Source: Promethearchaeota archaeon Loki_b31 (GTDB lineage: Archaea; Asgardarchaeota; Lokiarchaeia; Sigyniarchaeales; SOKP01). From it: DNA of 17,946 bases. Under the pieces are notes generated by a model. It was not told the origin of the DNA and did no database searches. It saw only the letters and a program-made list of their open reading frames with translations. This document shows, piece by piece, positions 2,416 through 6,402 of the stretch. Both the position numbers and the translations under genes were made by a program. How positions within the stretch are numbered: position 1 is the first letter of the stretch; each line of letters begins with the position of its first letter. The stretch spans positions 1 through 17,946 of the forward strand of contig NJBI01000062.1 of assembly GCA_005222975.1 (NCBI GenBank), read 5' to 3'.

Positions 2416-2564
2416 TTTTCAAACAACTACAAATTTTAAATTAAACTAATTAATTATTTATAAATTTTAAATTTTATTAGTTCTGAATAACTCTTTTATT
2501 GATATAGATAAAAAATAATTTAAGTAGTAATAACCTAATTTTATTAAAACTTTTGTTAAGAATT

Positions 2565-3488
2565 ATGTCATTCAAAGAGAAATTTAGGGAAGGAATCATA
2601 TCAGCAAAAGATTTTTCGCGGGAAGATATCGATCATATCTTAAAAAAAGCCAAGGAAATGATTCAGGATAAGAAAAGTTCAGAACTCCTTAAGGGCAAAA
2701 TTTTAGCGTCTTTATTTTTTGAACCCTCGACTAGGACTCGTTTAAGTTTTGAATCAGCAATGCATCGATTAGGGGGGAGCGTAATTGGCTTCCATTCTGG
2801 TGATGTCTCTTCTGCAAAGAAAGGAGAAAGCATCGCAGACACCATTCGAACCGTAGAAAATTATAGCGATGGCATTGTTATAAGACATAATTTAGAAGGA
2901 TCAGCAAGACTTGCCACAAAATTTGCAAAAATACCAATTATAAACGCGGGATCAGGGAGCGGTGAGCACCCAACTCAAGCTTTGTTAGATTTATTAACTA
3001 TTACCGAAGAGGGGCATAAGTTAGACGGTTTAAATATTGGGATAATGGGGGACCTAAAATTCGGAAGGACTGTTCATTCTCTGTCGATATTACTTTCAAA
3101 TTATGATGTAAATATCTATTTTATAAGTCCTAAAGAGCTAATGATGCGAAAAAGAGATAAGGATTTCTTACGGCAACGACAAGCAAAATATAAAGAAATT
3201 GAAAAATATCGAGATATCTTAAATGTTTTGGACGTTCTCTACATTACTAGAATTCAGAAAGAGAGGTTTGCCGACATTGAAGAATACGATAGAGTTAAAA
3301 ATATATATATCTTTACAAAAAAAGATTTAAAGGAAACTAAAGACGATTTTAAAATTATGCATCCTCTACCCAGAGTTACAGAAATTTCTCCTGATATTGA
3401 TGATTCACCAAAAGCGATTTACTTCAAACAAACTTACTATGGAATCCCTATGAGAAAGGCGATTTTAGCAGAACTTCTATCAGATTAA
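2565..3488 (+). CDS. pyrB: Aspartate carbamoyltransferase catalytic subunit
   Basis: Motifs FFEPSTRTRLSF, KGES..DT, IRH, INAG...EHPTQ, GDLK.GRTVHS, TRIQKERF and MHPLPR. ATG at 2565 is preferred over the ORF-track TTG at 2553. Confidence 0.97.
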   Translation: MSFKEKFREGIISAKDFSREDIDHILKKAKEMIQDKKSSELLKGKILASLFFEPSTRTRLSFESAMHRLGGSVIGFHSGDVSSAKKGESIADTIRTVENYSDGIVIRHNLEGSARLATKFAKIPIINAGSGSGEHPTQALLDLLTITEEGHKLDGLNIGIMGDLKFGRTVHSLSILLSNYDVNIYFISPKELMMRKRDKDFLRQRQAKYKEIEKYRDILNVLDVLYITRIQKERFADIEEYDRVKNIYIFTKKDLKETKDDFKIMHPLPRVTEISPDIDDSPKAIYFKQTYYGIPMRKAILAELLSD

Positions 3489-3508: not shown

Positions 3509-5500
3509 TTAAGCTCTAATTGAAAACGCGTTTAATTTTGAATTCATTAAAATCTCTATAAGTTCAAGCAAATGTAAGTTATCTAAATTACATGTAAAAA
3601 TGCTCCCTCCGTCTAGGATTTTTTCGAACTTCTTATAAAGCTCAATTTTTATCTCGAGTGATAATTTTGAATCATTTCTAATCAAATCTATGTTGTAACG
3701 TTTAGTTTCATCTCCTAAACTAAGTTTATTATTATATTCTTTATTATATAGGTAATTATCGTTATGAGGATGAGTAAAAATATAGTTTCCATGTTCTCGT
3801 TGATTATTTTCATCAATAATATCAACCATAAAATTTAATACTTTTTGGGCAAAAACCTCGCTATTTACGTTTCTATCTATTTCAATACCACAATGCGTTT
3901 TTACAGCTTCATTTAAGCCAAAAAAACTAATGGATTTTAAAGATTCGTCAATCCAATCACCATTTTTCGGCTCAAAAAATTCGGAAATTATTTTCTTCCA
4001 ATGATTTGAAGATTTTAATTTTCTATCTACTAATTTTTTTTTACTAACAAAGAATTCAAACACAGAATCTAGTTTTTCGTGCAAATTTTCGAAAAAAATA
4101 CAATCTTCTTGGTTAGATTTTTTAGCAATCATGTGTAAATTTATCAGAATTTTGTCTAAAACGATTTTATTTCTTTCTTCGTCGTTCTTGTTTAGCTTGT
4201 GGACATTTGCAAGCGTTGAATTTATTAGGTTTGAATGGTTGTTCTTATAGAAAATAATATTATTACGATAACTTGAAGTGAGAACTTTTATTAAATTATC
4301 AGACTCGCTTTTAGAGCTAAGAAAGTCGGAGTAATCGTATAACATTAAAGGACATATGAGGTCATTGTTTAGGCTAATTTGATTGATTAAATTCTTTAAA
4401 AAGTCGTTGTAAAAATGATTATTCGAATTTTCTGCATTATTATTTTTATTATTTTCCAAAAAAGAGAATTCTAAAGAAAGGTGAGATTTCTCGTCGTATT
4501 GCCTATTACTAAGTTTTAAAATTTGGGAAATTATGATATTAAGAATATTTGATGTATTTTTATTAGAATTAAAATAAGATAAAAAGGAGTTACTAAAATT
4601 GCCTAATAATATATCTTCAGAAAAATAAGGCTTGAATTTCGTTAAAATATCGAAATAATTCATTATTAAATTAATAAAGTCCGTATTATTTTCCAGTTTA
4701 TTAAGATTAATCGAAGTTTGCTTAGTGATATGTTCTACGATTGATTTTGAGTCAAGATAGAAGCCTAAGGGTCTCAAACTCCAATAATTTAAGTTTAATA
4801 AAGCTACCTCTCCTGATAAATATAAGTCCGCTAAGTTTTTAGGGAGCAAACTTAACAAAAGAAATTGCTCAGACACATCGGATCCTAACTTAGAGATAAA
4901 CTGTTCGGGGTTTAAGTTTCTGTCAAAAAAACTAAAAGCTTCAAAAGGAGGAGTCCCTAACCGAGTTAATTTGTGCCTTATTTCTTCTAGCCCATTTTCT
5001 AATAGAATCGCGTTAATATATTCCCTCATTAAGGGTGTTGTTAAGTAACCAATGTTAGCTTTAGAAAGACGCTCTTTTACTTCCTTTGATATTTGTATTG
5101 CTAAAAATTTCTCCAACTGTCCTTCCTTAATCAAGTAATCTTCGATTTTGTTCGCATTAAAAGGCTCTTTCGAGTATTTAGAAGTCCTTATCATAATTTG
5201 TTTGTTTTGATCGTTAAGGATTTGTTCCATCGATACGACATTTTTTAAAATTTGTTTCCCTAAAGTGCTTAAAGTATAACCACTCTCGGAAGTTGATATT
5301 AAATTACCATTTTTTAGCGCTTTTAAATGAAAAGAGAAATTAATTGAGTTTGGATTTGCACCTAAAACTTCTTTTTGAAGCATTGAATAAGATAAAGGAT
5401 TACGATAGACATTTAATTTTTTCAAAATGTCAATTCTTATTTTTTGACCTAGTATCTTTAGCTGTTTCTCTAAAACATCAATATTTTTGTCGGAATCCAC
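3509..5500 (-). CDS. ArsR-type winged-HTH / ATP-cone / degenerate class III ribonucleotide reductase (NrdD-like) fusion protein, probably catalytically inactive
   Basis: aa ~10-90: 'LKILGQKIRIDILKKL....LSYS.L......NFSFHLK.L....LI.....Y.LS.LG..IL' is an ArsR/HTH_20-like wHTH. aa ~102-182: 'IRTS....EPF...KI...L.KE......A.QI..EV.ERL.....YLT.PL.RE..NA.LLE.GLEE.RHK.TRLG' matches the archaeal NrdD ATP-cone. Later NrdD-like anchors are 'LLP..LAD.YLSG', 'INL..IA', 'FFGLNEAV..H.G' and 'KIE....F..IL.GG.I'. The protein ends before the CxxC/glycyl-radical domain. GTG start. Confidence 0.8.
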   Translation of the reverse strand: MDSDKNIDVLEKQLKILGQKIRIDILKKLNVYRNPLSYSMLQKEVLGANPNSINFSFHLKALKNGNLISTSESGYTLSTLGKQILKNVVSMEQILNDQNKQIMIRTSKYSKEPFNANKIEDYLIKEGQLEKFLAIQISKEVKERLSKANIGYLTTPLMREYINAILLENGLEEIRHKLTRLGTPPFEAFSFFDRNLNPEQFISKLGSDVSEQFLLLSLLPKNLADLYLSGEVALLNLNYWSLRPLGFYLDSKSIVEHITKQTSINLNKLENNTDFINLIMNYFDILTKFKPYFSEDILLGNFSNSFLSYFNSNKNTSNILNIIISQILKLSNRQYDEKSHLSLEFSFLENNKNNNAENSNNHFYNDFLKNLINQISLNNDLICPLMLYDYSDFLSSKSESDNLIKVLTSSYRNNIIFYKNNHSNLINSTLANVHKLNKNDEERNKIVLDKILINLHMIAKKSNQEDCIFFENLHEKLDSVFEFFVSKKKLVDRKLKSSNHWKKIISEFFEPKNGDWIDESLKSISFFGLNEAVKTHCGIEIDRNVNSEVFAQKVLNFMVDIIDENNQREHGNYIFTHPHNDNYLYNKEYNNKLSLGDETKRYNIDLIRNDSKLSLEIKIELYKKFEKILDGGSIFTCNLDNLHLLELIEILMNSKLNAFSIRA

Positions 5501-5784
5501 TTTAAGTTCAATAAATCTTGTATATCATTATTTCGGCTTAATTAAATATTATACTTAAGAGGTATATAAAAATTAGGAATTTTACAGACCAAAATGAGAA
5601 TAGATATTATGTAGGTGATAAAATACAATATAATTTTTAATTTTCCAAAAGAATTTCTTGTTCTGACTCTTTAAAGAGGATTTATGATTATTTTGGTACA
5701 TAGAGAAACGATTTTAATGAAATTAAGTATGTAATAAATAACTTATAAAAAGAGTACAAAATAATTTTTCAAATTGAAGGTTTT

Positions 5785-6402
5785 TTAGCGTGCTGATACT
5801 GCTATCCTTTCAATTTCGTCTTTTCTTTTTACTGCCCTTGATTCTTGGCTATCGTTCGAAGCTAATATTAATTCTTGAGCCAAATTCGCTGCAAATTGTC
5901 GTTCGTTTGAGTGAGATCTTGCACCAATAGCTTGTACTAAATATTTAATTGCTAAATCTACTCGGCGCTGTGGCGCTATATCGACAGCAGACGCATAAGA
6001 AATCCCACCTCGAGCAATCTTTGTCGTTTCTTCTCTTGGAGCCGTATTGCAAATCGCTTCAATTAAAATTTGGATAGGATTCACGCTTGTATTCAATTCT
6101 ATCAAAGTAAACGCATCTTCTAAACTCCTTAAAAGTTTACTCTTTTTTCCTGAGCCGTACGAGCTCTTATGTCCTTTAATTTTACTACCAATAAATCCAG
6201 GTGCTAGTAATCTGTTAACAAATCGTTCAACAATGGATATTTTAGTAGTCTTCCAAAAGCGCTTATGTTCATGCTTTCCCGCAGTGTGCGGAATGATAAC
6301 AGGTCTTAAGTTTATGTAATGTTCAAGAGTCCAATCTTTAATTTCAATGTTGTTAAACGACCATTTATTAAATAATTTAATATCTTTTTTTGTTTTACTC
6401 AA
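5785..6402 (-). CDS. rps7: 30S ribosomal protein uS7
   Basis: 'IKLFNKW', 'PHTAG.H..KRF', 'NPIQ.L..AI.N..PREE.T.I..GG......VD.APQRRVDLA' and 'KDE.ERIA.SAR'. The TTG start is preceded by an SD-like AGGTGA that overlaps the rps12 stop codon. Confidence 0.97.
   Translation of the reverse strand: MSKTKKDIKLFNKWSFNNIEIKDWTLEHYINLRPVIIPHTAGKHEHKRFWKTTKISIVERFVNRLLAPGFIGSKIKGHKSSYGSGKKSKLLRSLEDAFTLIELNTSVNPIQILIEAICNTAPREETTKIARGGISYASAVDIAPQRRVDLAIKYLVQAIGARSHSNERQFAANLAQELILASNDSQESRAVKRKDEIERIAVSAR

Follow-up and report, generated by a model that had tools for sequence, protein, structure and literature searches.

What does a class III ribonucleotide reductase (RNR) do once the residues needed for catalysis are gone and a predicted DNA-binding domain stands at its N-terminus? 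The question is raised by a gene in a stretch of 17,946 nucleotides (nt) from Promethearchaeota archaeon Loki_b31 (GCA_005222975.1, contig NJBI01000062.1, 1-17,946); we refer to this whole stretch as the window and use its coordinates throughout. The gene and its protein, both called X here, occupy positions 3509-5500 on the minus strand, where an uninterrupted open reading frame (ORF) of 663 codons begins with GTG, at the place given in a preliminary description of the window made from the sequence alone. That description read X as an RNR repurposed as a regulator, an analogue of the repressor NrdR with predicted binding of DNA and nucleotides. Our results support this reading, since X, nrdD, and nrdJ share a short promoter-proximal box and since homologues of X stand upstream of RNR or dcd genes in other archaea. 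We consider it rather likely that X is a noncatalytic descendant of a class III RNR that serves as a nucleotide-sensing, DNA-binding regulator of deoxynucleotide supply, follows an NrdR-like logic, and regulates its own gene.

Residue losses were read against P0122, the intact NrdD paralogue encoded by the same genome, and against a motif table of 97 winged-helix-bearing relatives. P0122 (709 amino acids [aa]; 469 bits) carries HIHML, RPFC, a CC finger loop, QPSES, YYTNS, CxxC...CxxC, and RVTGYY. The alignment bore out the earlier statement that the functional motifs of NrdD have been replaced in X and the scaffold kept. HIHML has become ALLNL, which removes the HxH motif; RPFC has become RPLG (loss of the second active-site Cys), QPSES has become HPHND (loss of the catalytic Glu), and YYTNS has become RYNID. 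Relative to P0122, eight residues are deleted exactly at the NxN flap, and the finger-loop CC has no counterpart in X, where that stretch holds zero conserved Cys. The HxHD motif and the NxN flap are substrate-binding elements, and the flap is among the most conserved motifs of NrdD (PMC11226230). The Asn of the INL motif is retained and invariant (Asn454). The C-terminus of X (...NAFSIRA) stops right before the zinc ribbon (CxxC...CxxC) and the glycyl-radical motif (RVTGYY) of P0122, as first described, and its stop codon lies close to the convergent gene pyrB (Table 1).

These losses are shared by relatives of X. The same C-terminal end was found in all 29 aligned members of the Loki subfamily, and both active-site Cys were missing in 97/97 aligned winged-helix-bearing relatives from Asgard and TACK archaea, so that the catalytic Cys is absent from close and distant homologues alike. 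The Loki subfamily additionally lacks the HxH motif, the Glu, YTNS, the zinc ribbon, and the radical tail. Of the longer members, many still have the zinc ribbon, and the glycine survives in some. Judged by its residues, X cannot carry out nucleotide reduction by the known mechanism.

The genome (3.5 Mb; 92% complete; 31.5% G+C) has other genes for this reaction, a point that the preliminary description had left to be checked. In addition to the working-type NrdD P0122, it encodes an NrdG2 activase (152 bits), whose gene lies on another contig, in agreement with the earlier remark that the window holds no nrdG. It also encodes a class II RNR, NrdJ, of 1242 aa with an intein (HNH domain) and a cone (G000:C87:43297-47025; L224:398-4126). 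Because NrdD, NrdG2, and NrdJ are present elsewhere in the genome, X is dispensable for catalysis. A six-frame search with PF02867 came back blank, and the conclusion that the genome lacks class I and II RNRs was rejected as a false negative, as PF17975 finds NrdJ. Since PF02867 misses the intein-bearing NrdJ, surveys based on it would undercount the RNRs of Lokiarchaeia. A six-frame search of the whole genome with TIGR00244, gene X included, gave zero matches to NrdR.

The N-terminal part of X supports the ArsR-like winged helix proposed for it. Pfam DUF7347, a winged helix, matches aa 14-87 (E value, 2e-10; 41.1 bits, above the gathering threshold of 27.6), and the N-terminus of the family profile matches the ArsR structures 6j05 and 6j0e (E value, 3e-4). 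In NCBIfam, HTH_metalloreg matches with an E value of 7e-4, and the NF033788 subfamily score of 19.3 bits is below the cut-off of 55; relatives of X have matches to Pfam HTH_5 and HTH_20. The recognition helix (aa 55-64) contains the near-invariant residues H58, L59, and L62 and is followed by a wing at aa 68-77. No ArsR metal-binding Cys motif was found in X, and there are zero Cys within aa 1-99.

The Pfam ATP-cone profile matches aa 102-173 with an E value of 0.005, below the cut-off in this copy; relatives score above it. The cone region also resembles the cone and linker of the NrdD from the same genome (28% identity; E value, 7e-17), consistent with the NrdD-type cone first noted here. 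The phosphate ligands of the cone are Lys7, Arg8, Arg87, and Arg91 (PMC11226230), and X has invariant basic residues (R105, R175, and R180) in the hairpin and last helix that correspond to these sites. We also observed a stand-alone protein of 141 aa, formed by an archaeal-type ATP-cone plus linker, in the genome of X (G000:C15:9684-10109; L228:1429-1854) and, in the sister family, proteins of 187 to 245 aa that match the cone and linker region of X. The Pfam NRDD match covers aa 445-657 of X and only part of the profile (positions 276-500 of 562; 46.9 bits; cut-off, 26.2), and X scores 38.8 bits with the NCBIfam NrdD equivalog TIGR02487, far from its cut-off of 326.35. X belongs to the NrdD family by descent, yet it has none of the functional hallmarks of the enzyme.

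The structure prediction that the preliminary description had proposed gave a confident model resembling class III RNRs. Built with AlphaFold2 on 98 relatives, the model had a mean predicted local distance difference test (pLDDT) score of 88 and a predicted template modeling score of 0.80, and it consists of an ArsR-type winged helix (a1-a5; secondary structure at the N-terminus, H-H-H-H-E-E-H), a cone, and a barrel. The top 36 Foldseek matches were all class III RNRs (best E value, 4e-17; template modeling score, 0.55 to 0.65), among them those of P. copri, T. maritima, S. thermophilus, and T4. A homodimer model of aa 185-663 scored 0.76 (best control, 0.00), with contact agreement of at least 91% among runs and a partner pLDDT of at least 77. 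The modeled interface is of the NrdD type (aa 185-217, 238-243, 271-292, and 315-329). The mark for the dimer score was attained by 20 of 30 proteins solved as one-chain pairs, compared with 1 of 23 single-chain structures, and the pass of X may show likeness only, because NrdD dimers have already been solved.

Homologues of X are numerous. We found 478 homologues of ∼664 aa, all with DUF7347 and NRDD, and those with a named source were mostly labeled Lokiarchaeota or Promethearchaeota; a relative of X is encoded in ∼145 species-representative genomes. A profile-free search of 1.8 billion representatives added longer relatives (700 to 800 aa) from Jord-, Baldr-, and Helarchaeota, Thermoprotei, Bathyarchaeota, and Nitrososphaerales, so that the architecture sought in Asgard archaea and Bathyarchaeia occurs in Asgard and TACK archaea, Bathyarchaeota included. 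Annotations of the longer relatives read "anaerobic RNR," "hypothetical," or "ArsR family," and the label "anaerobic ribonucleoside-triphosphate reductase" on relatives of X agrees with the expectation that automated pipelines would take such proteins for NrdD. When the phylum was surveyed with the N-terminal 260 residues of X, 56 of the 201 genomes sampled had one copy, with a patchy distribution over families.

Conservation is uneven along the protein. Residues invariant across the superfamily concentrate in the recognition helix, the cone, the linker, and the first core helices, and the most conserved ones are R105, S107, E112, F114, I119, R159, R175, R180, and G182. In six close orthologues, the ratio of nonsynonymous to synonymous substitution rates (dN/dS) was 0.21 for the winged helix, 0.09 for the cone, 0.08 for the first core helices, 0.28 for the middle part, and 0.37 for the C-terminal half. 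Every domain of X evolves under purifying selection.

A link between X and RNR genes came from the promoters. The upstream regions of nrdD in 25 diverged genomes contain two islands of identity, the TATA box and a downstream 8-mer, CCGACAAA, with the rest free. We use the term RNR box for the 9-mer CCGAYAAAA common to the leaders of nrdD and nrdJ and to the start of X. The box was present in 29/31 nrdD leaders, in 20/35 nrdJ leaders (as CCGATAAAA or, in some genera, CCGACAAAA), and at 77/80 5' ends of X. A weight-matrix scan of the whole genome gave its top hit in the nrdD leader and its next best at the start of X. Counted from where TTTATAT begins, the box lies 70 nt downstream in 23 of 28 nrdD promoters and likewise in 16 of 18 nrdJ promoters, and 75 to 77 nt downstream in most X promoters. 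The genome holds 263 CCGAYAAA sites, eight of which have a TATA heptamer 61 to 80 nt upstream; among these eight, only the sites at X, nrdD, and nrdJ precede the start of an ORF. A fourth TATA-spaced CCGAYAAA site lies 196 nt from a transposase gene. The box 8-mer is not enriched in the genome (80 occurrences versus a median of 67 for permuted 8-mers).

At X, the box overlaps the first codons. The first base of codon 3 varies (TCC, GCC, ACC, and CCC, encoding S, A, T, and P) and its CC is constant, the Asp is always GAC, and the Lys is always AAA, despite the G+C content of the genome. At five loci (L048, L058, L065, L079, and L083), an in-frame TAA follows the box, which is therefore noncoding, and the start codon of X must be an ATG that lies 17 nt past the beginning of the box. 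Because the nucleotides are kept while the residue varies, and because the box is noncoding at these five loci, the box at X is conserved as DNA (or RNA) and not as peptide. The same five loci mean that the annotated GTG or TTG starts of other orthologues may deserve checking. Neither the nrdD nor the nrdJ leader matches any Rfam family, the nrdD leader yielded no consensus RNA structure (0 pairs), and upstream of nrdJ in the sister family the box is found in reversed orientation as well; together these findings favor a double-stranded DNA site. In an Asgard family where X was not found (0/43), the box was present in 0 of 21 nrdD leaders.

The X promoter has a further element of its own, upstream of the TATA box (Table 1). 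Its ATCACC was found in 75/81 X promoters, and the element is effectively unique in the genome: the only other strong match (C87:68933, a second ATATCACC element) falls within coding sequence and was treated as chance. Near the expected transcription start, nrdJ promoters (L195-L220; G000:C87, ∼43180-43250) share TAGGTTAAGGCA, and X promoters (window ∼5530-5550, minus strand) share the similar TTAGTTAAGCAG, with different spacing to the TATA and RNR boxes. We also looked at a wider DNA-replication regulon, with the box upstream of MCM, Cdc6, and a RadA-like gene, and rejected it; these sites were treated as chance, given that the MCM site, the one compared across relatives, is kept in only 2/29 related genomes and that the 8-mer is not enriched. 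The MCM gene itself (G000:C41:4249-7983) encodes 1244 aa with a LAGLIDADG intein and has a CCGACAAA site 109 nt upstream that is not conserved in relatives. New with respect to the preliminary description are the RNR box and its fixed spacing, the conservation of nucleotides where X begins, and the link to NrdJ.

We propose the following mechanism. X would dimerize through its NrdD-type interface, and the cone, perhaps together with the retained specificity-site region at the interface, would read the levels of ATP and dATP or of deoxynucleoside triphosphates (dNTPs). Nucleotide occupancy would set the geometry or the oligomeric state of the protein and thereby alter DNA binding by the two winged helices. 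The targets could be the RNR box, the X-specific ATATCACC element, or both, and binding ∼40 to 47 nt past the presumed transcription start would repress or tune nrdD, nrdJ, and X itself. The X protein is the putative binder of the box.

Several observations weigh against a regulator of this kind. The box could belong to another factor, with no tie to the X protein itself, and DNA and nucleotide binding by X are predictions from sequence and model. ArsR-type dimers usually bind inverted repeats, and the box is asymmetric. For an archaeal repressor, a site at ∼+40 to +47 relative to the presumed start is uncommon, and the starts themselves are inferred from TATA boxes. The cone of X scores under the Pfam cut-off, and its N-terminal KR(D/N)G has given way to IRTSK. 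Further, no such box was found at X or nrdD in an Asgard family with X-type homologues of 773 aa, at six distant X-homologue loci, or in the nrdG upstream region. Given this distribution, the box tracks the Loki order and not the whole superfamily. A bolder form of the proposal, which we advance only tentatively and hold to be doubtful, places a minimal RNR regulon of Lokiarchaeia (nrdD, nrdJ, and X) under X as its master regulator, which would act via CCGAYAAAA and integrate two signals taken over from the ancestral enzyme, the ATP/dATP ratio (through the cone) and the balance of the dNTP pool (through the retained specificity site at the interface). If this were true, X would be a transcription factor whose sensor module is an entire reused allosteric enzyme.

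The features of the locus are collected in Table 1. Gene order around X is well conserved: pyrB lies tail to tail with X in 78/80 species loci (gap, 6 to 67 bp where the best tblastn match spans the gene), and the rpoA'-rpoA''-L30e-NusA-S12-S7 block stands 5' of X on the same strand in 72/80 loci, at distances from 149 bp to 5.9 kb.

Table 1. Coordinates of gene X, its domains, its promoter elements, and adjacent genes in the window
Feature	Position	Strand	Remarks
Gene X: winged helix, ATP-cone, and catalytically dead, C-terminally truncated NrdD-like body	3509..5500	-	663 aa; GTG start; stop codon 3509-3511
ArsR-type winged helix (a1-a5), aa 1-99 of X	5204..5500	-	Pfam, NCBIfam, model, profile, conservation
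Archaeal NrdD-type ATP-cone plus linker, aa 100-182 of X	4955..5203	-	Pfam, NrdD alignment, dN/dS 0.09
First NrdD-core helices (predicted dimer interface), aa 183-260 of X	4721..4954	-	Alignment, dimer model, dN/dS 0.08; place of the specificity site in true NrdD
Barrel, first half (low conservation, indel-rich), aa 261-440 of X	4181..4720	-	Alignment, dN/dS 0.28
Barrel, second half (Pfam NRDD match), aa 441-663 of X	3512..4180	-	Invariant N454 and C537; dN/dS 0.37
RNR box CCGACAAAA, over codons 3-5 of X (nt +8 to +16)	5485..5493	-	9-mer CCGAYAAAA, common to nrdD and nrdJ leaders
TATA box TTTTTATATA of X, with BRE-like (transcription factor B recognition element) stretch upstream	5563..5572	-	TTTATAT starts 77 nt before the RNR box
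X-specific upstream element TTATCACCTACATAATATC; family consensus ATATCACCYAYATATTATC	5603..5621	-	∼35 nt upstream of the TATA box
pyrB (aspartate carbamoyltransferase catalytic chain)	2553..3488	+	Convergent with X; 20 bp from the X stop codon
Ribosomal protein S7 gene, end of the rpoA'-rpoA''-L30e-NusA-S12-S7 block	5785..6402	-	Upstream of X, same strand

The steady presence of pyrB makes it conceivable that a nucleotide-sensing X regulates pyrimidine synthesis (pyrB, pyrI, and carA) instead of, or besides, the RNR genes. Adjacency is not confined to the Loki order. In Baldrarchaeota X faces pyrB and pyrI adjoins, in Helarchaeota X is followed by pyrB with carA in the vicinity, and in Nitrososphaerales the order is X, nrdJ, and then convergent pyrB. 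In sister-family genome L180, pyrB precedes X on the same strand with a gap of 42 nt, an operon-like arrangement, and in two further sister-family genomes a pyrB-like gene appears to end in the upstream flank of X. However, pyrB and X are convergent in the family studied here and are therefore not cotranscribed, and in 77 loci the pyrB promoter region contained neither the RNR box nor the ATATCACC element. The Nitrososphaerales layout further suggests that X, an RNR gene, and pyrB once formed an older block and that the adjacency in the Loki order is left over from it. Other lineages place X beside genes of deoxynucleotide supply (an NRDD gene 138 nt downstream of X in Bathyarchaeota and a dcd/dUTPase gene 98 nt downstream in Thermoprotei); no nucleotide-metabolism neighbor was seen at the Jordarchaeia X locus. 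Overall we regard a role for X in pyrimidine synthesis as unlikely. The idea that X stands in for PyrI was rejected, as PyrI is present elsewhere in the genome.

Two conserved sequences were noted at these loci. The divergent pyrB/L44e promoter region (window 2416-2552) contains a highly conserved block, TAATTATTTATAAATTTTAAATTTTATTAGTTCTG, in ∼40 diverged genomes. Directly upstream of a Nitrososphaerales X homologue (L176:4830-5000), a 16-nt direct repeat, AATAAACCCTAAAACA, occurs twice, with the second copy running into the ATG; in this one sequence, the repeat may be that lineage's own operator.

Slightly less probable still is that X acts as a noncatalytic partner subunit, pairing with active NrdD to tune its activity or specificity and using the winged helix for protein contacts. 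The interface helices are among the best-conserved parts of X, and an NrdD-type dimer was modeled, which may reflect likeness only. Moreover, many sister genomes have a further dead, truncated NrdD paralogue with a cone and no winged helix, so dead NrdD bodies seem to be useful. Against such a subunit stand the five sister-family genomes with an X-type protein and NrdJ in which NrdD was not found, as well as the conservation of the winged helix, recognition helix included, across the superfamily, and pairing with NrdD would leave the shared DNA box unexplained. The five genomes belong to the same order (three are single-contig), and their X-type proteins have 703 to 750 aa (ORFs read in two); the X-type dead protein was their sole NrdD-family match.

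The additional paralogue is a third NrdD-family gene of ∼600 aa (200 to 240 bits; profile positions 8-504), present in many sister genomes (e.g., L229:351-2141 [G025:C69], and ∼50 similar places) and not in the genome of X. Its cone and body are near those of the true enzyme, it has RPYN for RPFC, and it lacks the finger-loop Cys, the zinc ribbon, the radical tail, and the winged helix. This protein seems to be a dead NrdD that arose separately from X and was cut at the same place.

It is improbable that X still catalyzes a reaction or binds a ligand in the remnant barrel, for instance by nonradical chemistry on a nucleotide or a related compound. Some barrel residues do persist as invariants of the X family (N454, D466, HCG at 536-538 [C537], and TQPH), and the dN/dS of the C-terminal half is below 1, but all known substrate-binding and radical elements are gone, and the half of the barrel that would carry the finger loop is the least conserved part of X. 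Finally, X could be taken for an nrdD pseudogene in decay whose N-terminal extension is accidental, or for the lone decaying allele that the preliminary description had allowed for. This notion has the lost motifs and the truncated C-terminus in its favor and is refuted by an open frame of the same length in ∼145 species, purifying selection in all domains (dN/dS, 0.08 to 0.37), conserved promoter elements, and a confidently predicted fold.

We return to X as a probable regulator of deoxynucleotide supply and compare it with known systems. X shares with NrdD (T4, T. maritima, P. copri, and the archaeal cone-bearing clade) the ten-stranded barrel, the N-terminal ATP-cone with linker, and the INL Asn; it is colinear with the NrdD of its own genome and probably retains the dimer interface. 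Unlike NrdD, X has an added winged helix and lacks the NxN flap, HxH(D), both Cys, the Glu, the zinc ribbon, and the glycyl-radical domain. NrdR is the bacterial repressor of RNR operons, composed of a zinc ribbon and an ATP-cone, and its boxes are paired and palindromic. In X, as in NrdR, a DNA-binding domain is joined to an ATP-cone, and a box occurs at RNR genes of different classes and at the gene's own start; this likeness concerns the working pattern only, with X as the presumed binder of the box. In contrast to NrdR, X uses a winged helix in place of the zinc ribbon, has no TIGR00244 match, shares homology only in the cone, and carries an extra dead RNR body of 480 residues, and the box associated with it is an asymmetric 9-mer downstream of the TATA box.

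X resembles the ArsR/SmtB proteins in the a1-a5 winged-helix fold, in the HTH_5 and HTH_20 matches of its relatives, and in the profile matches to ArsR structures. It differs from them in having no metal-binding Cys motif, in scoring below the NCBIfam cut-off, and in being fused to a large sensor module. RbkR, an enzyme-derived archaeal regulator in which riboflavin kinase is fused to a winged helix (PMC5397151), likewise joins the fold of a metabolic enzyme to a winged helix and controls genes of its own pathway; RbkR, however, is described as bifunctional, with an active enzyme part, and the enzyme part of X is dead and truncated. In the literature, we found no description of this domain architecture, of DUF7347, or of an RNR-derived regulator (the nrdD attachment sites of a Tn7 preprint have no bearing on X), and X is probably an undescribed nucleotide-sensing switch for the supply of DNA precursors.

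Most bacteria have a described NrdR, but among archaea this holds for only some (PMC9110341). How archaea control dNTP supply at the level of genes is largely unknown, and the X family offers a candidate regulator, a candidate operator, and a three-gene regulon. The label "anaerobic ribonucleoside-triphosphate reductase" on relatives of X would mislead metabolic reconstructions of Asgard and TACK archaea. If our reading is true, X would be an example of an allosteric enzyme that has turned into the sensor of a transcription factor.

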